A DNA stretch of 64,000 bases, taken from Hormiphora californensis. Lineage: Eukaryota; Animalia; Ctenophora. The notes beneath the pieces were generated by a model. It saw only the letters and a list, made by a program, of their open reading frames with translations, was not told the DNA's origin and made no database searches. The stretch's first letter is position 1; the number at the start of each line of letters is the position of its first letter. Both the position numbers and the translations under genes were made by a program. Shown piece by piece: positions 3,001 to 59,408 of the stretch. The stretch spans positions 4,960,001 through 5,024,000 of the forward strand of contig CM035354.1 of NCBI GenBank assembly GCA_020137815.1, written 5' to 3'.

Positions 3001-6000
3001 ATTTTTCACCTTCTATCATCCTCACTACTTCACTATTTCACTATTTCTTCACAAGTCCAAGTGTGCAGTCAACTAGCTGTGGTTGCGCCCGTCTCCCCCA
3101 GACCTAAACCATACCCCTCTCTAATGGTTTTTCCTAGACGAGACGATTACCTTTTTATTATTTTTAGGTTTGAAATCTGTGAGGGGTCCCTTAGCTGCAG
3201 CTTTCGCTGTGTGGGACCCCTGGGTGTGTGTGATGATATTTGAAAACAAGTTTATTATAAATGTTTCCCACCCAAAATAGTTCGACCCAATAAAATTAAT
3301 TACTAATTAGATGAGGGTCAATACTACTACTAATGGGAGGTTGACCAAATCATATTTTTGAGACGTCCCCGTGCTAACATTTGTCACTCCCTCATGTGTT
3401 ACACGCCACCCTAACATGTCTCTCTCTCCCCTGCCAGGATTCCCCACACCCAGTGTCAGCACCAGTGTAACATCATCTACCTCCAACACCTTTACCATCA
3501 CCATGGGTGGCAGCCTCACCCTCAGTGGAGACTACAACACCACCGTGAGTTATATCATGGGTGATATAGTAGTTACCATGGGTGATATAGTTACCATGGT
3601 TACCGCCATGGTTACTATGAAGTGTGTTACACTAACTCAATACCCTCCCCAGATTGATGGAACTACCTATGAATTAACCTACACTGATGGAGTGGCTACT
3701 AAACTCCTGACCGACCTCACAGCCCTGGAATCCTACACCTATGACGTCACCATGACCAGCACCACTGATGTCGTGTCCGACGCTGTTTCAGTGACATTCA
3801 CTCAGGGACCCACTGAGCCTAATGTGACAGGCAGCACAATCACTGATACCAGCTTCAACATTGTATGGATACATACTAGCGAGAATGCTTATTCTCTTAC
3901 AATCTACAAGAAGCTAGACACAGGTATTATTATACGGGTGACATAAACATATTAGATTGACTCATGTCTCGTGTGGGCTGTGGGGAGATGTATTTATTTA
4001 CAGATGAAACAAAACAGGGCATGGTATTCTATAGCTGCTTTTATACACCTCACATTTCCAGGTGATTACTCCGAGGTTGGATCTCACTCTATCTCCGCTA
4101 CCGAGACGATCAATACCCACACTTTCACCGACCTCGAGGCTGGGGAGACCTACAAGATCGTTATTGACGCTGAGATGGAGGTCAGCGGGGTCAACATCAA
4201 GAGCGCAGAGACGAGCATCGAGGAACAACTATGTAAGTATTATAGACACGTCCCTCAATCAGACGGTTACCATGGTTACCAATCAGATATTAGTTACCAT
4301 GGTTACCGGTGGATAGCAGTTACCCACTCACATATTGCCATCATAATGCATATTATGTTTTCACTATTAGATCCTACAACTTACCATACTACCCCTGTAT
4401 CTAGATTCGTGTACTCGTGAAGATAAGTCTGCGTACACCCTGTACTACAAGAACGGCGGTCAGGTGGTCACTGCGGACTACTTCTACGCTGATTCCAGTG
4501 TCATCTACATTGTCGAGTGTCCGGTAAATATATACACGCCTTTTTTACTGCTAACCCCTCACTTGGATGGGTTGAACTGTACTCTTGGGATGCTGGACCC
4601 CCTCACTTCATCTAATCCACGATAAAAGCTGTTCAAACTCATCGTTACCATGGTTACAACATTATCCTTTCAGGCGAACCAGTCCTTTAAGACAGTGGAC
4701 TCCACCTACGACAACGAGACTTCATGTATCGGGGCCGAGAGTTGGTCCACTCATAGTGATTGTCAGGATACCGCAGGTATAAATGAAATGAGCGAGAGAT
4801 GGAGAGAGATATAATTGAGATGAATTATATCTAGTGGTTACAGGAGAGATCATATCCAGATTAAGATCTAACCCACTTGATCAACCCACTCTAACAACAG
4901 CTAACACACATACTATAGAGCCGGAGAAGGTGATTGATGAAGGGTCTGATGTGGTTGTTGGCATTGTGTTAGGTATCCTTGCAGTGCTTATCATTGTAGG
5001 AATCATTCTGATCCTCATATACAAGAGAAACAAAGAGTAAGTGTGTGTGTTGTGTTTTATTAACGCACACACACACGCACAAGAGAGATAGGGAGTCAGA
5101 GTGAAGTTTGGGATGCTAAAAAACTTACTACATAAAACGTCATGTCGTATTGTAGTCAAATAATGAATTGTAACAGGAATAAGTTGTCTATAGTAAAAAC
5201 TAATAAACTAACAGTAAATCTTATAGATGAGGTATCAAACCCGACGGATAATACTGCAACTGTAACTGGAATAATAATAGCGATTATAGTAATTCTGATA
5301 ATAATTATCATCATAATTATCCTAATTAAAAGAAGGTTAATTAAGTAACATGTAAACTGCATGTGTTAAACAAAATGTCAATGTGCCCGTGCCGTTCTTT
5401 TAACTGTGCTATTAACTTACCATCTGACAGACAAACAAATAAACAAACTTACCATCTGACACGACTGACAGACACTTATTCGACCTTCTCTCTTCGAAGG
5501 GCTAGAACATGCAGACACAATTATACAGCTTAGTAAATCTGATACAACCTTGCGAACTTACTCAATACCTACTACTTACACGATAACTATAATAAAGTAC
5601 TGGCCATGCTTTACCTAGTTGACACGTCTCCTTAGGATTGGCGCTAGGATTGTATAGACCACCATCTTTCTAGGTAGATCGACTGATAGACATAGCGTAT
5701 AGTTACAATCTAAGCTACTAGGCATCACACAAGGACTCAGTGTGTCATTTGTAAAAGAGATCAATGAGCAAATAAATTAATATTTTGATTTTTGGCAGTG
5801 ATCACACAAATTCGCACTATATAATTTGAGTTGTTCACGTATACATGATTTGTTACACATGTCCCCACATTGCTTCAGAAGCGTCTACCAGTGATTCTGG
5901 GAATGCGGCAGCAGTGACTGGGATTATAGTAGCAATTATAATATTGCTAATATTCCTTGTCGTCCTAATCGTCCTAATTGACCGAAGAAGGTTTTTAAAC

Positions 6001-9000
6001 ATGAAGATAATGATGGTCATGTATAATCTTCGCATGTCGATATATATATATGTGTGGATGTGTGTGTCTTTGAGTACCCATGAAACATGATTAGGAGTAG
6101 GTCCGCAACTACAGGATACCGGGTTTTAGAATATCAAAATCCTATTCGCTAGATTTAAGATAACACAAACACTGAACAAAGCATGTAAAACACTTTTAAA
6201 ATTTAACATTTCAGCAGCAATGAGCTCTGGTGAAGTAGCGGGGATAGTGGTCGGGGTTGTATTGGCAATAGTTGTCATTGCCTTGGTCGTACTGGCCATT
6301 GTAATCATGATTAGGTAGATAGAACACAGCACAGGATCTATACAATCTCTATTATAGCCTGGAATCTATACAACTCTCTCTTATATAGGCGCAAAGTTTA
6401 CTAAACTATAATATACCTGGGGCTCTTCGACGAAACTTTAAACACACTTAATAAATAAGCTCTCTTTAGAGTTACACAAGGAAAATTTTTCAGACTTGTC
6501 TCGAGAGGGGTGTCGTCGAACGCTTTCCAAAACCTCACTTTAGGTCCTTGGTGTGAACCACGTGTATACCACGTGAATCCCCGGATCACCCCTCGTGTAT
6601 GGGTGTAGAAAACCAATCAGGGGATCGAAAATGGACACGTGATAGGATTTCCATTACATGGGTTTACACAGGCGTCAATTTGGTCACGTGTAGGGTTCAC
6701 CAGCCAATAGTGTTAGCGAGATATCACACCAGATTGGGCGTGAAGAAGAAGTTTGACTTCCATTTCTCAAGATTCAAGAAATTTCAAATCTTCAAAACTC
6801 TGTGTACTCTTACAGTAGCTGGCAATGAATGTTATAGCGGACAAATAGAGATCTAACATTGATTGTTCGCATTTTGAAAAATCAATAAACCTATACACTA
6901 ATAACTTAAGCAATATTATTTAGGCCGGGTGAGATGAATAGATAGGCTGCTAGATGAAGAGATAAACAGTGAAAGTATAGTAGTAGTTCACTGTTCATCT
7001 TGTCCTGCCAGAAGGAAAACAACTGAATTCATCCACATCTTATCTGACTGTGAGAGTCTAATACAGATGGTGTATGCAGTATGGGCTTGGCTGAAACCCC
7101 AAACTAGTGCCTCAATATTGTGGTTGAGTAGAGATAGCTAACTGGGGGACAAGGAGTGCCATTTTATCTTTTTTCTACATGCGAGAAGCAAAATATACAC
7201 TGTTTTGTTGCATTTTTTACTTGCCAGCGCTGTCTTGTCTACCATTAAGTCTCCTCTGGAGGAGACTTAACAAATCTCACTTTTCTCGATATTTGAGTGA
7301 GATATTGCGTGAACTATGACGTCATTGTCGCTTCAATTTGGCCCAAATCACGTGATTTTACCACGTGATTAGGGGGTTACGCAAGGTTTGGAGAGCTTGT
7401 GTAAAACTTCACTTACTACCCCTCAATTTTCACTAAGCAAGATTTCTAAAAAGTTTCGTCGACACAAACCATGCTTAAGGGGTGTGAAAATCAATTAGAA
7501 GGTGTGAAAGGAGAGTTACGCAACGTTTTTAAGTGTGCTTAAAGTTTCGTCGAAGAGCCCCTGATCAGTACTCTATCCTGATCAGCACTAACTTTTAAAA
7601 ACTTACTGAACAATTTGGCCAATTATGGAGTCAACGAATTCTTGGGCTTGATGATCTTCTAATAGGAAATATATTATCGTTTATTCAACAGACGAAATTG
7701 ACTAATTGATATCTGACTGGACAATTATATCTTTACATATTTGCATGGTGTAATGTACACTGTTTGTATATCTTGTATCTGTTTCAGCATCTGAACTTTG
7801 AATGTTACTACTTTTCTTGACAACATGTTGTCAGATATATGGGTCCTATCTCCAAATATCTGACAATATCAAATGAGCATGCCCAAACAACTTCTCTCTC
7901 TCTTTGTCTTTTCTTGTGCGTGTGTGTGCGTGTTGTAGGGGGACTTGACATAGTGATGTTAAAGTTCCCCCCGGCATGTGACAAGAATCATGGGACTCTT
8001 GATCCTATAATTCTTACTGAGAATAGCATGAACAAAGGCCGTGGTTGCTGGTCTCTGATTTTCTCTCAAGACCTTTCATTTGCCCCCTCCCTCCCTGTCC
8101 CTCCCCCAAGATCTTGCAAGATCACACCCCACGGCCACCCTCTACAAGACACCATGGTAACCCCAAGACGCCATGGTAACGGCCCACTCTCTTTAAGAGA
8201 CCAGCCCAACCCCTCTTCAAGAGACCAGCAACCATGTCAACTGACAATCACGCTCTACCCAGCACACCCAGTTACACACTTTATTGGATCCCAATCATAG
8301 ATCTGATAAGTCTGTAACCATGGTTACCACTCACTCACCCCTGTATAACAGCTGAGTGAGTGGTACTGCTGCAGGAGGGTACCATATATCTTTCAGTACA
8401 TCTAATGTCCCTCCCCCTCTAAACAGGAAAGGAAACCCCAACTCCAATGCATACTCGCCCCGAGATGAGGAACGCAACCAAGAGTAAGTTAAACTTAAAA
8501 TACTTTTTTGTACTTTTAATTCTGGTGTACTTTATGTACTTTTAGTTGATTGAGACTGCTGCACGATGTACTTCTGGTTTGATAAGAGTGGTTGCCATGG
8601 GCGTGCACTGCACCATGTAACCATGGAAACCGTTGATTAACCGTTGCATCCCCTGGTAACCATGGAAACCACGGATTAACCGTTGCATCCCCCTGTAGGG
8701 TAGAGGGAGGTGAAGCCTGGAAGAACCCCTACTACCACGAAGACGATAACAAGTAGGGAAACTGTTTGTTTTTGTTTGTGTTAAGCTGCGTCCATTAATC
8801 ACCCATAATTATCCCTCTAGACTAGACCCTATCTCTTTATTTGTGTTTACTGTTTATGCATAAACACGATTTGTGCATCCAATCACCCTTTAAATGGTAT
8901 AGCTGTTATAGTCCGTATCTAGGTAGCTGTAGTTTATGAGGATGTGTGTGAATGCGTTGTGCGTGGAGCATTATCTAGCTTTGTGGCCTCATAACAACTC

Positions 9001-11003
9001 GGCAGCACGATTGTGTAATAATTAGTTGGTTTCCTAATTAATTAATTAATTGTCTAATAACACACCAGGCCCATTAATGAGAATGAAGTGATTTTAACCT
9101 CACTAAGAGAGGGTAATAACGGATACGGCACAGCTCCGTATAATAACGAACAGTCGGCTACATTTGAGTGTGACGACACTAGCCTCCCTCTCAGGGAGGA
9201 AGAGGAGGAAGATAGAGAGTAAGGGCAGCTGCAGTGACTGCTAGCTGGGTGCAGCATAATAGAGAGAGTGCTACAGATATGCAGGGAGTCAGAATTGTCA
9301 TTAAGAAGCATATTTAGCGGCTATAAAGCGGTCATGAATCATTCCAATGCTCAGGCTACTAGCTAATCAATTAACATTAGCACAGGAGCTGTCCCTGATA
9401 AAATTAATAAGTGCCGTATATGTGTGTGAAACAGCTATAGGTGGCGAACAACCCTAATTCTTAAAAAGGGAAACCAGTGCCCCAAAACACTATATCCTCT
9501 CAACTGTGTGCTACACCCCCTCTTTACCGTGTGCTACACCCCCCCTCTTTACACTACTCAGGAAGGAGCCTGAAGATGTGCCCCTACCCATGCCCGAGTA
9601 CAATACCCCAAAACCCCCGCCCCCGGTGGAGTACAATGAGGTCGCTGAGCTGCCTCCACCTGCCCCTGAAGAACCTGAGCCTGAGCCTGAGCCTGAATTT
9701 GAACCGGTCGTGAAGTAAGGGCCCCACCCATGATGTGATGCATGGTCTGCATGGTGCATGGAACTATAATAGGGTCATTATTATACCACTGACTCTATAG
9801 TATTTGGCCCCGCACAGAGTCAGAAATTAACATGACCTGCGAACCCCCCCCCCCTTCCCCTCAGAGTTTTGACAACTACATCCTGACAACTAAATTACAT
9901 TTAAACAATTTGACAATGACTGACAATGACATACTTGATCCTACGCAGGTCCAAGATCAGTAGTATTGTTGACTTGACTGACTATGACGACAGGGTGTTA
10001 ATTAACCCCAAAAAGACGTAAGAACATCGAGAGAGATTTGAGACCCCATTCCCAAAAAATATTACTCTTTAGTATTTAGTTTGGTAACATCTCTCCTTGT
10101 GCACGGAAAGGCACCCCATTACTAAGGGACCTGCTAAAACACACTAGATACTGGCATGCTATATTGAACCCTATAGTGGCTGAGATTAGATATCCTATCA
10201 ATGCGCCTGTTAACAGACATATATTCTCGAAGGAGCTTTATACATTCTGAACCTGCATCCCCCATGTATTGTGATGTTCTCACTGGGCTGCATTATGATA
10301 TCCCCTAACAACATATCCCCTTCACCCAGGAGTAGTCCAGATATCCCTGCAGTGCCTGATAATAGGGAGGCCCCGGACACGCCGCCACCAGCCCCTCCTG
10401 CCGATAACGTATCACAGGTTAGTACTATATAATAGTTCTATCTTTTTACCCTCTCACTCCGCGCTCCTCTTTTACAAATGTAAAGGAGGGTCACCATATC
10501 AGTGCGAACTAGTTCTATCTAGGAGCTGGGCCTCTGTGATCACGTCCCCCTCACACAGGGCCATGGCCAAGTTCTATATCTTCTAGACAGGGCTGCTCTG
10601 AGTCTGCTAAACGTGTAGCTCTTAGACTGAGGCTGGAAGACGTGTTTGTTTAGCACAGCCCATGATATCTCTAGACGACATTCTATCTGATCTAATTTCA
10701 AAGACGGCATTTAGTCTGAATTCCGAATATGATTGCATTTCGAATTCACGCTGAATTTCTGCTAGTTCTGTTGTCTCCTTCCCCGCTCTGTCCCCTCTCT
10801 AAACCCCATTCTACGCCTCTCTCTCCCCTCTCTAAACCCCATTCTACACCTCTCTCTCCCCCTCTCTAAACCCCATTCTACACCCCCCCAACTCCCCTCT
10901 CTAAACCCCATTCTAAACCCAGGGAGGTGAGATGACGTTTGATGACGACGAGCCAGAGGCCGATACCGTCATAGAGAACAGAAATGCAGGGAACAACGTG
11001 TAA
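1..11003 (+). CDS. Multi-exon type-I transmembrane receptor (5' end outside window): Sushi/CCP-like repeats, 3-4 FN3-like beta domains, a membrane-proximal Sushi-like domain, TM and a Tyr/Pro-rich cytoplasmic tail
   Basis: Hand-assembled GT-AG exons: <1-107, [335-468 or 512-621], 1254-1379, 1516-1747, 1909-1990, 2088-2314, 2508-2668 (2 apparent extra T), 2779-2922, 3438-3544, 3653-3923, 4062-4232, 4405-4523, 4674-4776, [TM 4919-5036 / 5227-5335 / 5879-5990 / 6215-6314], 8427-8483, 8699-8752, 9069-9218, 9562-9714, 9949-10017, 10330-10417, 10923-11003 (..NAGNNV*). Phases are consistent except at 2508-2668. Sushi-like motifs: GQTVTFTC..IRCKW..C and PGEKVKLSC. FN3-like motifs: FTDLEAGETYKI, LTDLTALESYTY, FSGLSSLSSYSV. 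Confidence 0.85.
335..468 (+). CDS. Alternative Sushi N-half exon a (DLCGFSSSQSYKNVD...YDVAAYTK)
   Basis: acacag| acceptor, AAA|gtacta donor, phase 1 to 0, 134 nt; joins in frame to the VKLSC exon at 1254. Confidence 0.7.
512..621 (+). CDS. Alternative Sushi N-half exon b (DTCALRTTNALNIGEITW...MRPGEK)
   Basis: ttgcag| acceptor, AAA|gtgagt donor, phase 1 to 0, 110 nt; gives PGEK-VKLSC with exon 1254. Confidence 0.75.
4919..5036 (+). CDS. Alternative TM exon A (EPEKVIDEGSDVVVGIVLGILAVLIIVGIILILIYKRNKE)
   Basis: ctatag| ... GA|gtaagt, phase 1 to 2, hydrophobic helix plus basic stop-transfer residues. Confidence 0.85.
5227..5335 (+). CDS. Alternative TM exon B (DEVSNPTDNTATVTGIIIAIIVILIIIIIIIILIKRR)
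   Basis: ttatag| ... AG|gttaat, phase 1 to 2. Confidence 0.75.
5879..5990 (+). CDS. Alternative TM exon C (EASTSDSGNAAAVTGIIVAIIILLIFLVVLIVLIDRRR)
   Basis: cttcag| ... AG|gttttt, phase 1 to 2. Confidence 0.75.
6215..6314 (+). CDS. Alternative TM exon D (AAMSSGEVAGIVVGVVLAIVVIALVVLAIVIMIR)
   Basis: tttcag| ... AG|gtagat, phase 1 to 2; not in the supplied + strand ORF track. Confidence 0.8.
6417..7563. mobile_element. Non-autonomous TIR DNA transposon (~1.15 kb, hAT-like CAGGGG termini) in the intron after the TM cluster
   Basis: ~33-bp inverted termini C(T/A)GGGGCTCTTCGACGAAACTTTAA.CACACTTAA; no clear TSD and no transposase ORF. Confidence 0.7.
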
Positions 11004-16947: not shown

Positions 16948-18354
16948 TTATAGAGAGTTGCCTGTTGCACGGTAGATGTAATCCAATACAGCTAGGATGT
17001 AAAATCCTCGCTGCCTTTTCTCTACTGCACACTCACGTTGCCTTATTGCAAGACACGCGGGGAACAAACAAGCAAATATCTCCCATTCTATATGGAATTT
17101 ATATCTCTAGCTACTCTCTTCTTCTTCTTCTTCTTCCTCTAGACTCTGTCTATCTCTTTCTCCTCTTGTCTAATTCACACAAAAATAGCCTCTTGTTAAA
17201 GGCAATCACACACACATTCTGGTGATGAGTAGATCTGTTTACATGACTTCTAAATCAGGTATCTATCATTATAACGTGAAAAGGACAGAGAAAACAAGAT
17301 TGATGGAAGACAGAGAAGTTGTAGTGATAGAAAAGACGTAGAGGAGAGGGTTTGGAATGTCATAGAATCTTGTATAATGTATCTTTTCCATGACAGACCT
17401 TTTTAGTTTTCAGCAAAATATGTCGGAATCCTATCACACTATCTCTCTCTCTTCTCTCTCTCTCCTTAGCCTATCTTTTTGACACTCCCACCTACCAGCA
17501 TTACATGCTTACCCCTATCCAGAAATAACTTGAGTTTTAAAACTCAAGGTATTATTGGGTTTCCTTGCTGCAAGCTGTGCAGTACAGTACAGGTCTGGAA
17601 CTTTCTACAACAAAAGTAGTCAAGCAACCTTTTAAAAAAACTCTGGTCGACCAGGACAAAAAGAGACAGCCAGGATTTCAGTAATTTACTGCTCGTACTG
17701 TCTCTGCAATCTCGATACAACAAGGCTGCAAATAGCACTGCAGCCGCTCTAACCAACCAACCAACCACTCTAACCACTCCAACCACTCTAACCCCTCAAA
17801 CCAACCAATACAGTATATACCTGGTTGCACTGATAGTGTTGAGTACTGCAATGGTGCTGCGGGGGCAGGTGGAGGGGGCGCACCACCAGACCTGACATCG
17901 TCATATATCGGCTCCTGAGAGGGTGGGAGATATTAGGGTGGTAGCTGTTAATTTTAGAGTTGTTTCTGTTATGTAGGTAATGTATTTTCTCTGGGCAGTG
18001 AATAAGAGTTGGTTAGAGCGAGCAGGGTAATGTAATAGAGACGGATGGAGGGTGTAGGCTCCTGGTGTGAGGATGGAATGAGAGGGGTGATATTGCAATA
18101 TTATATACAGGGTGGGAGGGAGAAATGGGTGGGGGATCGGGGGCAGTGACAGATTGAGTAAAGACTAGAAAAGTAAGGATGCAGAGTTAAAGGAAGGAAG
18201 GAAGGAAGGGAAGAACAATGATAGAAATGAGAAGAAAAAGAAGAAAAAGAAGAGGAACGAGAGGGAGGGGATGAGGCTGGTGACACAAATCCGGCCATCA
18301 CAATAATATCGGTATGTGTCATCATCTTTGCTTCACAAACATTAAAGAGAGATA

Positions 18355-18453
<99 letters not shown>

Positions 18454-21400
18454 ATAGGAAGGTAGTATAGAGTTACATTAAAATATGCTACACACAAATT
18501 TCTTGTCACCATGGAAATGGGCTTGCGGTGGAAATGGGAAGATGTTTTTTTTGGAAGTTTGTTTACTTTTGACTGATTGATCAGTATGTAAGGTATGTGA
18601 TTGATTGTGTGCTTGATGATGTCCTGTTTGTCCGTGTGTGTGTTTTACCATGAGTGTGTGTATTGTGTGTGTGTGTGAGATTGTTTGTCTTTGTCCGTGT
18701 GGCAGTGGTGGCATATTTCATCTTCCAATGGTAGGGTCATAACCATCACGTTGTGGTGATTGGTTGGTAGGGTCAAGTATAACAGTGTTATAACCACTAT
18801 ATGACTATCTGTCAGGTGTGTGTGCCAGGTTGAACTATTGTCAGTTAAGGTAGCTAATGGGTCTGTTTAGTGTGTCAGTCATTGTGTGTCAGTTATTGTG
18901 TGTCAGGTGTGTGTCAGCTGTATGTGTGTCAACACGCTACCTCGGAATGATATGAAGGAGGGACTGCGTAGTGATCTTCAGGGGGCCTAGGAGCAGGAAC
19001 ACTCGGCTTGTGTAACCCAGTCAGTTATTGTGTGTCAGTCATTGTGTGTCAGGTGTGTGTCAACACGCTACCTCGGAATGATATGAAGGAGGGACTGCGT
19101 AGTGATCTTCAGGGGGCCTAGGAGCAGGAACACTCGGCTTGTGTAACCCAGTCAGTTATTGTGTGTCAGTCATTGTGTGTCAGGTGTGTGTCAACACGCT
19201 ACCTCGGAATGATATGAAGGAGGGACTGCGTAGTGATCTTCAGGGGGCCTAGGAGCAGGAACACTCGGCTTGTGTAACCCAGTCAGTTATTGTGTGTCAG
19301 TCATTGTGTGTCAGGTGTGTGTCAACACGCTACCTCGGAATGATATGAAGGAGGGACTGCGTAGTGATCTTCAGGGGGCCTAGGAGCAGGAACACTCGGC
19401 TTGTGTAATCCTTCACCTGTCTAAGAAACATAACTTTCAATGACTGTCTGTCTGTTTGATGTTTATTGATGTTGATGTCTATTGATATCACTGGTGTTGA
19501 GATCACCATGTCTATCACATTGTGAGTTACTATCTGTATGTTACTCTGTTTGTCTGTTTGTCTGTTTGTCTGTTTGTCTGTTTGTTTGTCTGTTTGTCTG
19601 TGTATACCTCGTTTTTGACACTGTGTAACCGGCCACGTGACTCCCCGCTGGTTAACCTCGAGCCTGGTGGAGGCGCAGGGGCCGCTCTTCGGGGCTGGAG
19701 CTTCAACGACTAGGGGGACAACACACACTTAGGTTACAATGCTTCAATTATAAAATCAAATACGACACATGATGATCTCTGAAGAGTTCCAATCTCACAC
19801 AAACATAGGCTGGGATAATATCACAGGGACGTGCGAATATAAAATACATCATGCATACATTATAAGTAGAGAGATAGGGAACATGGTGAGTCTCTAATCA
19901 GAACTCCTGCACATGTAACTCTCTTGAGATTCCATAGAGACGCAATCACAGATCACACATGCACCCACACACACACATAGAACCTACTGAAACACTCCGT
20001 TGCACGGAGGCTTTACGGGACTGAGATATTGCTTCACTCTGAAAAAACGTGCACCGGCATGTAACACACCCACTACTACACAATACAACGTGCCCACCGG
20101 CCTGTAACACACCCACTACTACACAATGTGCTGTACTGTTACCAGTGCTGTACTGTTACCAGTGCTGTACTGTCACCAGTGCTGTACTATAATTCTAGAC
20201 TTTTATTATAAATTACAATAGCTAAAATGTGTACTACATACTACTATAAAAAGTATAGCACAAAGGGAGATATATATTTATTAGCAGCATTGGTTTTGTA
20301 TGTCCCCCCAGGCCCCACATACAAAGCGAACCCCCCCCCCCCACACGGTGTACCCCACGGCCCACCCCTATCTAACACACAAAGTGTACCCCGTTTTCCT
20401 ACCTTGGAGCTAGTGACAGAAGTAAGGGAGGTGATAGAATTACACCGGTTCATGGCCGGACTCAGACTTCCCTGACGTATATCCACAGAACTAGCGGACA
20501 GACGGTTCGGAGCTATCTCTGGGAGAGGGATAAGAGAGTTATTCTAAAAAGGGAGAAGAGAGTTGAATTTTTGGAAGTAGAACAACTTGGAGTTTACTTC
20601 TACTTGGAGTTTATTTGAAATGCCGGTCAACTTGACAAGTCGGTTTCCATGGTAACGGAAGTGAGAGGGGGAATAACGGAGGTCAGAGGTGAGAGAACCA
20701 GGGGAATATATACATTTTCAACTCACGTGGCGAATTGAGGGTAGTGCTAGTTGCACTTGACAGGGATAACTGAGATGCACTGTTAATGTTAATAGGTGCT
20801 GCATGCTGCATTTCTTCATAGAAATCCTCGTTAAATTCGTCATCACCTACATCTCCACCTGTTACGAGGGGGAGGTGAGATTTTAGCATTCCGGGAGGGG
20901 GAGGGAGTGTTATTGATCGAGTTTTCTTGTATATCATGATTCAGTGAGTGATAATTAGGATGACAAGTTATGTGTTATCTCTCACCTGTCACTAGACTGA
21001 TCTTGTCGTACTTAGCATAGCTTAACTTCTCCCATTTTCCCTCCCCTCCCTTAGGCTGCGTTATGTTCGGGGGTCGCCCTATTCTAGGCTGACGGTTTGG
21101 AATGTTGGCAGGAGGTAGTCTAGTATGTAGATCCGCTCTAAACGAACAACACGTCGACTTCTCAAGATATGCCGTGGCGGTGAGGGCTTTGTTTTCAATG
21201 TCTGACAGTTTGTCCGCCTGATCGTCCAGGAGTTGCTGGAAACATCCTGCCAAGTTATAGATCCTCTTGCTGACATCAACTAGACATGTTACAGCTTTAT
21301 CTCTAGCTTCTATCGTCAAGTCGCTCCTGTAAACAACACGATTGAGAAAAGGCGAGGTAAATTATAATATAAATGTCTGACAGGGGAACACGGATGAGTA

Positions 21401-21631
21401 ATTAGTCACAATTACACCGTACTATGCTTACCTTTGCTCAACTTTATCAATATAATCCTGCTGGTACATTTCAGCTACATTGTTTAGTTCATCTTTGAAA
21501 TCGAGAAGTTGCCTCCTAAACTCGGGAAGCTGCTCCTCAGCATTATCAAATTCCAGCTGGTCCTTAGTGCTACCATTGTGTATGGATCCCGTATCACTGG
21601 ATACGTCTTGTAGGTCGGAAGTGGAAACCAT
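16948..21631 (-). CDS. ABI: Divergent Abl-interactor (ABI)-like protein, a WAVE/SCAR complex subunit family member
   Basis: Exons 21631-21432, 21326-20986, 20858-20727, 20518-20403, 20038-19988, 19709-19608, 19416-19334, 17914-17821, then a terminal exon at 17725-17544 or 17087-16948. The N-terminus EEQLPEFRRQLLD..LNNVAE..QDY..CLVDVSKRIYNLAGCFQQLLDDQADKLSDIE aligns by eye with ABI1 [57 protein letters not shown]. A Pro-rich middle follows. One phase conflict at 19608/19416. Confidence 0.7.
18910..19410 (-). repeat. 131-bp tandem repeat (~4 copies) containing the 3' part of an ABI exon plus its donor site
   Basis: ctacctcgg recurs at 18937, 19068, 19199 and 19330. Confidence 0.9.
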
Positions 21632-22131
21632 CCTCTCGCATCATCTACCTACACATGGGGCTTGGATCAGTGTTTCTATTCAATGAACCACAACACACAT
21701 CACAAAATGTAGCCTTTTCTTTGGTAAATCATTATTGTCTTTTTATTGAGAATGAAAAAAAGCTCTCCTAAATCTCTACTCTCACAATCCAGATAGATTC
21801 CCACGTTAAAACCAGTCAAGAGGCCGAAATGGGTAGTAACTCGGACATTGGATATATGGTGTGGTGCTTGCTGCTTCCTTGTGCTTTACAGGCAGCACCA
21901 AGCACAGTAGGAAACAGCAATCCGACACCGGGGTCTCAGATAACTCGAAACAGTGGTTTTATTTCCAACAACTTCACGAGATCGAGATAAGATAATATGA
22001 ATGATGTAAAATCACGATGCATTAACATGTGACGCGCGAACATTTTATAAGTTACGCTGCATTTGCTCGACGCGCGATCAATTTTTAATTTGTTCGGAAA
22101 AAAAAATCTCAAAATTTTTTTTACTTTTTTC

Positions 22132-26294: not shown

Positions 26295-59408
<33,114 letters not shown>

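Follow-up and report, generated by a model that had tools for sequence, protein, structure and literature searches.

The receptor gene and its products

The window analyzed here is a stretch of 64,000 nucleotides from the ctenophore Hormiphora californensis (assembly GCA_020137815.1, contig CM035354.1, positions 4,960,001 to 5,024,000). At its beginning lies what is likely one gene for a single-pass Sushi-like/FN3 receptor with four tandem-duplicated transmembrane (TM) exons, termed A, B, C, and D, one of which is probably picked for each productive mRNA. RNA evidence comes from two public seawater runs of two studies, X1 and X2. Both are pooled samples kept as contigs; X2 is recorded as RNA, and X1 is RNA by our guess. 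The contigs of the two studies show splicing of the gene at GT..AG joints between positions 107 and 10923, with at least 11 upstream joints. What is said of joints here and below concerns the 15 of 27 that were listed. The start of the gene lies upstream of the window, and one X1 contig extends 898 letters before position 1.

The ectodomain begins with Cys-rich Sushi-like units, continues with FN3-like units, and ends with a membrane-proximal four-Cys Sushi-like unit. The original prediction spoke of a Sushi/FN3 receptor. The FN3 part of this holds (Pfam fn3, 37.8 bits in the homologue P0012 described below, against a cut-off of 25), and Sushi is recognized weakly (E 0.082; four-Cys spacing). 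No family of the Ig set lies above the Pfam threshold in the 16 exon peptides and P0012, the N-terminus being outside the window. The cytoplasmic tail is without a catalytic domain and contains NPYY, five Tyr, and nine PxxP. The encoded protein is single-pass, of type I, and each isoform forms one open frame of 837-843 aa, incomplete at its N-terminus, once two extra letters are removed. These single letters, at 2519 and 2596 in exon 2508-2668, break the frame in the window and are absent from an X1 RNA contig. Because both are doubled letters, they are likely assembly errors. The receptor gene is under purifying selection: among 40 listed of 81 differences between RNA and window, 39 are coding and touch 35 codons, and 32 of the 35 are changed synonymously.

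Several side observations concern the exons of this gene. Exon 2508-2668 codes for a KKRSS stretch that is absent from P0012 and might serve as a convertase site. A putative exon at 512-621 was rejected, as the RNA joint 468-1254 skips that stretch. The proline-rich tail exon 9562-9714 is probably skippable, and the P0012 tail aligns better without it (65.5 vs. 54.7 bits). X2 depth drops from about 15 on the preceding exon to about 9 on this one. A candidate extra tail exon follows an AG acceptor at 9949-10021. Its read-through form would add 23 residues with DYDD and a stop, which is an alternative end, and its other form would be 48 nt long, up to a GTTAAT donor. X2 depth in 9621-10360 exceeds what the known exons explain, and the listed joints include none for the candidate exon.

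Four alternative transmembrane exons

Exons A to D lie between the ectodomain and the tail exons (Table 1). Their coordinates, lengths (all 3n+1), AG acceptors, GT donors, passage from phase 1 to phase 2, and peptides agree with the original prediction. The hydrophobic cores of A, B, C, and D comprise 23, 25, 25, and 26 aa, and their best 19-residue hydropathy is 3.6-4.3. In A, B, and C, 18 residues lead from the last Cys to the first Gly of the helix and 20-21 from that Gly to the first charge. In D the polar stalk is shorter, and the helix exceeds those of A to C by about one turn. Stalk chemistry varies strongly, from acidic in A to Ser/Ala in C and short in D, and the ectodomain and tail are common to all isoforms. 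The claim that basic residues follow each helix fails for exon D, which has none; the Arg of D is created at the splice joint, and the tail exon supplies the Lys. After helix C, the first charge is Asp. The helices were also said to be set apart by their packing motifs, with GxxxA as the only one in B and C. Both helices also hold AxxxG and other small-xxx-small motifs.

The frame was followed through all 16 inclusion patterns. As predicted, inclusion of none or two of the exons breaks the frame; 4 of the 16 patterns are open, and all of these are single inclusions. Skipping of all four exons shifts the frame and leads to a stop in the second tail exon, and each of the 11 multi-exon patterns stops within 6 codons past the first TM exon. 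Because only single inclusions keep the frame, a productive mRNA carries one TM exon. This rule tells which mRNAs are productive, not how the exon is chosen. Both strands of the window were scanned for chance candidates (YAG..GT, 3n+1, stop-free, hydropathy of at least 2.8), and five pseudo-exon sites came up. Since four of the five are exons A to D, the cluster is not a product of chance.

The exons have the marks of tandem duplicates. Adjacent exons are mutually homologous, have the same phases and similar lengths, and each alone keeps the frame. The resemblance of B and C that had been noticed earlier amounts to 72% nucleotide identity over 86 nt, ungapped, and each pair among the four exons shares 8-16 identical residues.

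Table 1. Features of the receptor gene and its introns, in window coordinates.
Feature	Position	Strand	Description	Basis
Ectodomain exons	<1-107, 335-468, 1254-1379, 1516-1747, 1909-1990, 2088-2314, 2508-2668, 2779-2922, 3438-3544, 3653-3923, 4062-4232, 4405-4523, 4674-4776	+		RNA joints, open frame, Pfam, Cys positions
TM exon A	4919..5036	+	118 nt; acidic stalk, GIVLG, KRNK; donor GTAAGT equals the consensus; acceptor tract weak	Sequence
TM exon B	5227..5335	+	109 nt; helix rich in Ile	Sequence
TM exon C	5879..5990	+	112 nt; Ser/Ala stalk	Sequence
TM exon D	6215..6314	+	100 nt; polar stalk, shortest of the four; GxxxGxxxG	Sequence
Cytoplasmic tail exons	8427-8483, 8699-8752, 9562-9714, 10330-10417, 10923-11003 (stop)	+		Joints 8483-8699, 9714-10330, 10417-10923 listed in RNA contigs
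Predicted long-range intronic RNA stem, 5' arm	5062..5108	+	Begins 26 nt past the exon A donor	Inverted repeat
Predicted stem, 3' arm (candidate docking site)	7889..7934	+	493 nt before the tail acceptor	
MITE-like insertion (miniature inverted-repeat transposable element)	6419..7561	.	Within the intron that follows D; terminal inverted repeats of 36 nt (94%); probably not connected with the switch	

The four exons in spliced RNA

All four exons occur in spliced RNA; B and D are displayed directly, and A and C are indicated by depth. The listed joints of X2 include the one that links D to the tail exon at 8427 (depth 8.27, GT..AG). Contig 10 of X2 (177 letters) holds the whole of exon B, with 4 of 109 letters differing, together with 38 letters before it and 30 after it. 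X2 bins cover B and D, not A or C. X1 bins cover A (depth about 3.4) and C (about 5.2), not B or D, and the depth of exon C in X1 is split over two bins as expected for that exon. The intron bins at 6661-8140 have zero depth in both runs. The joints of A and C to the tail exon are inferred from depth. With A at 3.4, C at 5.2, and a 30-letter overlap of each with the tail exon, a depth of 1.82 is predicted for the X1 tail bin; 1.84 is observed, and 1.13 would be expected without the overlaps. In the X2 tail bin, B and D predict 3.30 and 3.38 is observed. The depth of the last ectodomain exon is then 7.7, which is close to the 7.97 of its neighbour exon. For the junction check proposed with the original prediction, there is a listed joint for D, a contig holding the exon for B, and depth arithmetic for A and C.

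None of the X1 contigs continues into unlike sequence, and none of the 15 of 27 joints listed runs from one exon of the cluster to another, in contigs that drop rare forms. We consider the alternative, single use of exons A to D very probable. The separation of A and C in X1 from B and D in X2 is a weak hint of regulated use. It is only a hint, and genotype could explain it, because contig depth is a poor expression measure and the samples are pooled.

A homologue with a single helix

A full-library protein search gave four matches (P0010, P0011, P0012, and P0013). P0010 is a 93-aa piece with 89% identity, and P0011 and P0013, which are repeat-rich, were dropped as chance matches. P0012 is an unnamed protein of 578 aa from a 1785-letter JGI/IMG contig. 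It aligns with each isoform at 31-33% identity over 569 aa (E about 1e-73 to 1e-76), and the alignment includes the Cys unit next to the membrane as well as tail exons 1 and 2. By this comparison, the gene is conserved over distant relatives at about 32% identity. P0012 has a single helix in the same place as the TM exons. When this helix is anchored at the first charge after it, the fraction of core shuffles that do as well is 0.005, 0, 0, and 0.0002 for A, B, C, and D (5000 shuffles each). Exons A to D therefore descend from one ancestral TM exon, since the single helix of P0012 matches all four in register. Its assignment to one particular exon was tried and dropped; identities are 9, 16, 15, and 11 of 28 for A to D, and scores are 60, 87, 78, and 81.

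The sequence searches gave no named homologue and no sequence-level relative beyond P0010 and P0012. Word-indexed protein searches, which are weak negatives, found 0 related proteins among 4875 candidates of 283-2000 aa for the FN3 stretch and 0 among 761 for a longer relative of P0012. A search for a solved structure of a relative found none, and the single-sequence structure prediction for P0012 is uninformative (predicted local distance difference test score, pLDDT, of 37). A third run, X3, contains a contig of high coverage, and the sequence on its flanks looks like a diverged homologue of the FN3 exon.

Splice sites and a predicted intronic stem

The pyrimidine tracts of the A to D acceptors are weaker than those of 16 other exons of the gene (11.0 vs. 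14.4 of 20, p 0.012), and the donors of B, C, and D are weaker than the donor of A. The mRNAs that skip all four exons or include several are likely targets of nonsense-mediated decay, because they carry premature stops.

A long-range RNA stem is predicted between the intron after exon A and the intron ahead of the first tail exon. It has 43 pairs, of which 38 are Watson-Crick and 5 are G.U, and one A.C mismatch. The duplex has an energy of about -58 kcal/mol, which 0 of 200 shuffles reach, and it is weaker on the opposite strand (-47.8 vs. -58.6). Among 2200 control windows at equal spacing, 7 are as strong, namely the stem itself and six GA/CT simple repeats. A wider scan for a second strong duplex found none. 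If formed, the stem would loop out B, C, and D and cut the intron of A to about 519 nt. A 112-letter contig of X3 aligns to 7892-7926, 3 letters differing and 1 gap being needed; its locus is not proven orthologous, and the match is a hint that the 3' arm is conserved. An origin of the stem as a transposon end was considered and rejected, as no target-site duplication is seen and the mismatches lean to G.U (5:1), unlike those of the ends of the MITE-like element (0:2). The chances that the stem is functional and that it is not seem to us evenly balanced.

Two further observations belong to these introns. The 3' arm ends in an acceptor-like TAG at 7939, from which, in the phase of the tail, a stop follows after two codons (a tail-less form); it has no RNA cover in X1 or X2. 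A second copy of the MITE-like element was not found in the window.

Comparison with known systems

Alternative exons in or next to TM segments are known from several proteins. NKCC2, a multi-pass transporter, has three-way internal exons for one helix. In the juxtamembrane (JM) isoforms of ErbB4, shedding depends on the stalk, and in LAMP2 A/B/C three 3' exons code for the TM segment. What follows on known systems rests on excerpts of the cited articles. In human NECTIN2, a C-terminal exon swap changes the TM segment (PMC8373072). LAMP2 and NECTIN2 resemble the present gene in that duplicated exons swap the anchor of a single-pass protein; their exons are terminal and the tail is swapped too, whereas here four internal exons are followed by one tail that is kept. 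Human homologous exons are nearly all pairs, and the five three-way genes have them at the 5' or the 3' end (PMC8373072). The arthropod N-cadherin exons 18a and 18b form a mutually exclusive pair that includes part of the TM domain, and their isoforms show graded adhesion in S2 cells (PMC2655722). That choice is two-way and its exons encode 68-70 aa including EGF-like sequence, whereas the choice here is four-way.

A close parallel in form is arthropod Dscam1. Two TM variants (exon 17.1/17.2, or TM1/TM2; 32.1/32.2 in Penaeus monodon) are found in flies, beetles, mosquito, honeybee, and shrimp (PMC8787164; PMC6851185; PMC8042237; PMC1397879). The ctenophore gene is like Dscam1 in having internal, tandem-duplicated, probably mutually exclusive exons for a single TM helix, in an FN3-containing receptor with a tail without catalysis. 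Unlike Dscam1, it has four variants rather than two, and no Ig domains were detected and no ectodomain arrays seen in the part of the gene inside the window. The Ig-domain ectodomain and architecture that define the Dscam family are not recognized in that part. As the gene is unrelated and the phylum distant, the likeness is convergent. In the Dscam1 exon 4 and 9 clusters and in PGRP-LC, an intronic element that follows a variable exon pairs with another one downstream of the cluster, so that the rest is looped out (PMC8042237; PMC6191721). The predicted stem resembles the downstream docking site of Dscam1 exon 4 (PMC8042237), except that here exon A alone has a strong partner.

Among ctenophores, exon cluster-0 of the Mhc2 gene of Mnemiopsis leidyi is predicted to be mutually exclusive (PMC3912159); it consists of two exons of the myosin motor domain, whereas the exons here encode a membrane anchor. 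Exon skipping in M. leidyi is comparatively high among non-bilaterians (PMC6142364). A TM cluster of this kind is not described in the excerpts of a preprint on Mnemiopsis immune genes (10.1101/2024.01.21.574862) or of the paper on the Strigamia genome (PMC4244043). SUSD1-like proteins, which are only atlas leads (scores 0.79-0.87, under 0.9), likewise join Sushi and FN3 units with one helix and a short tail. The literature consulted holds no account of this gene or of an internal TM cluster of more than two exons in a single-pass receptor, and supplements such as the exon lists of PMC8373072 may hold such cases. Two-way precedents are known (Dscam1 exon 17, N-cadherin 18a/b), and a four-way cluster is twice that choice. 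A four-way internal TM cluster with RNA support and a candidate stem is apparently undescribed.

Weighing of alternative explanations

Several points weigh against a functional four-way switch. The upstream joints of all four exons are inferred, and the 12 of 27 joints outside the list include those of A and C. Pooled contig samples cannot show several isoforms per animal, nor can they rank isoforms. The cluster is unseen in a second genome; metagenome contigs gave 0 matches to the tail motif, and 0 of 82 matches to the P0012 pattern were confirmed. On the side of mechanism, steric exclusion is unlikely, because the introns between A, B, C, and D (190, 543, and 224 nt) exceed the shortest constitutive introns of the gene. 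Simple sequence (CA/TG and GA/CT) makes up part of the stem arms, and pairing of the 3' arm with the introns that follow B, C, and D does not exceed that of shuffles (p 0.59-0.78). There is therefore no support for a full docking/selector system; one strong long-range pairing is found, that of A, and competition of several selectors for one site is not. On the side of function, the geometry of stalk and helix is nearly equal across the exons, and in the P0012 helix a D-like GxxxG precedes a core of the B/C kind. For these two reasons the GxxxG contrast is less sharp than was claimed, and a reading of the helices by dimerisation motifs is weak. The N-cadherin TM isoforms, finally, are alike in their localisation in vivo (PMC2655722).

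This last case also bears on a rather less likely explanation, which is that the exons are alternatively used and the proteins interchangeable, with the duplication kept as a regulatory handle (stage or tissue output, coupling to decay) or as near-neutral redundancy, a view that has been put forward for the arthropod N-cadherin exons. It would fit the kept register of stalk and helix and the similar helix lengths as well as the N-cadherin isoforms 18a/18b, which lack differential localisation (PMC2655722). Yet the copies are old, judging by the few residues that each pair shares, and all are intact and expressed, whereas redundancy alone would presumably let copies decay; their stalks also differ strongly in chemistry. 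Another account, which we find improbable, makes exon use a matter of genotype or species, with each allele or population fixed on a subset and the other exons left as silent remnants. The A/C and B/D split between the runs would agree with it, as would the pooling of the samples and the several per cent by which the RNA differs from the window. However, all four exons with their splice sites are intact on one haplotype, each run shows two exons, and exon B of X2 differs from the window about as much as constitutive exons do. Least probable by far is that the exons are spliced in series as a multi-pass anchor, or that they are parts of separate, truncated paralogs, the latter being one of the cases named as refuting the original prediction. 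The early stops of every multi-exon pattern, the direct joint of D to the tail, and the one helix of P0012 speak against it, and a multi-pass product is refuted. Separate paralogs in the window are excluded, because tblastn of an isoform and of P0012 finds one ectodomain and one tail there.

Other features of the window

An intronless gene for a rhodopsin-type G protein-coupled receptor lies at 35838-37082 (-). It is 81% identical to a Pleurobrachia bachei protein and has weaker matches in Bolinopsis and Mnemiopsis. A second intronless gene of this type, at about 50050-51092 (-), appears split over two frames. The exon peptides at about 17600-21700 (-) resemble a gene that we take to be an Abl-interactor (ABI) gene. 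Long frames at 41822-44898 (+) presumably belong to a retrotransposon without long terminal repeats (non-LTR), as they resemble reverse transcriptase and RNase H. They are followed by an array of tandem repeats at about 45700-46600.

A putative anchor switch

In the explanation that we favour, alternative single use of A to D, the same ectodomain and tail would be carried on four different anchors. The choice may be set by weak alternative splice sites together with a long-range stem, which would loop out B to D and favour A, and splicing factors may choose among B, C, and D. Messages that skip all four exons or include several would be cleared by nonsense-mediated decay. A tail-less anchored decoy from a stable mRNA of the A+B type is possible.

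Dscam1 TM1 is dendritic, and TM2 is both dendritic and axonal (PMC7685093). By analogy with this pair (see also PMC6379420), the switch would likely serve to sort the receptor, or handle it at the surface, according to cell type or stage, and not to change its ligand. That the isoforms differ in sorting or shedding is a tentative proposal, slightly less likely than not. The idea of the original prediction that the switch tunes dimerisation, localisation or shedding is likewise tentative. It is rather doubtful, and speculative, that ctenophores independently evolved a Dscam-like, RNA-structure-guided four-way anchor switch, in which the swap of helix and stalk sends the receptor to different membrane domains or cell types and the choice flips by life stage or tissue (A/C vs. 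B/D). By fitting one ectodomain and one tail with four anchors, the gene offers a natural experiment on what the helix and stalk of a single-pass protein do, and it comes from a lineage remote from the arthropods. Should the stem prove functional, ctenophores too would have evolved long-range RNA pairing as a means of choosing among duplicated exons.

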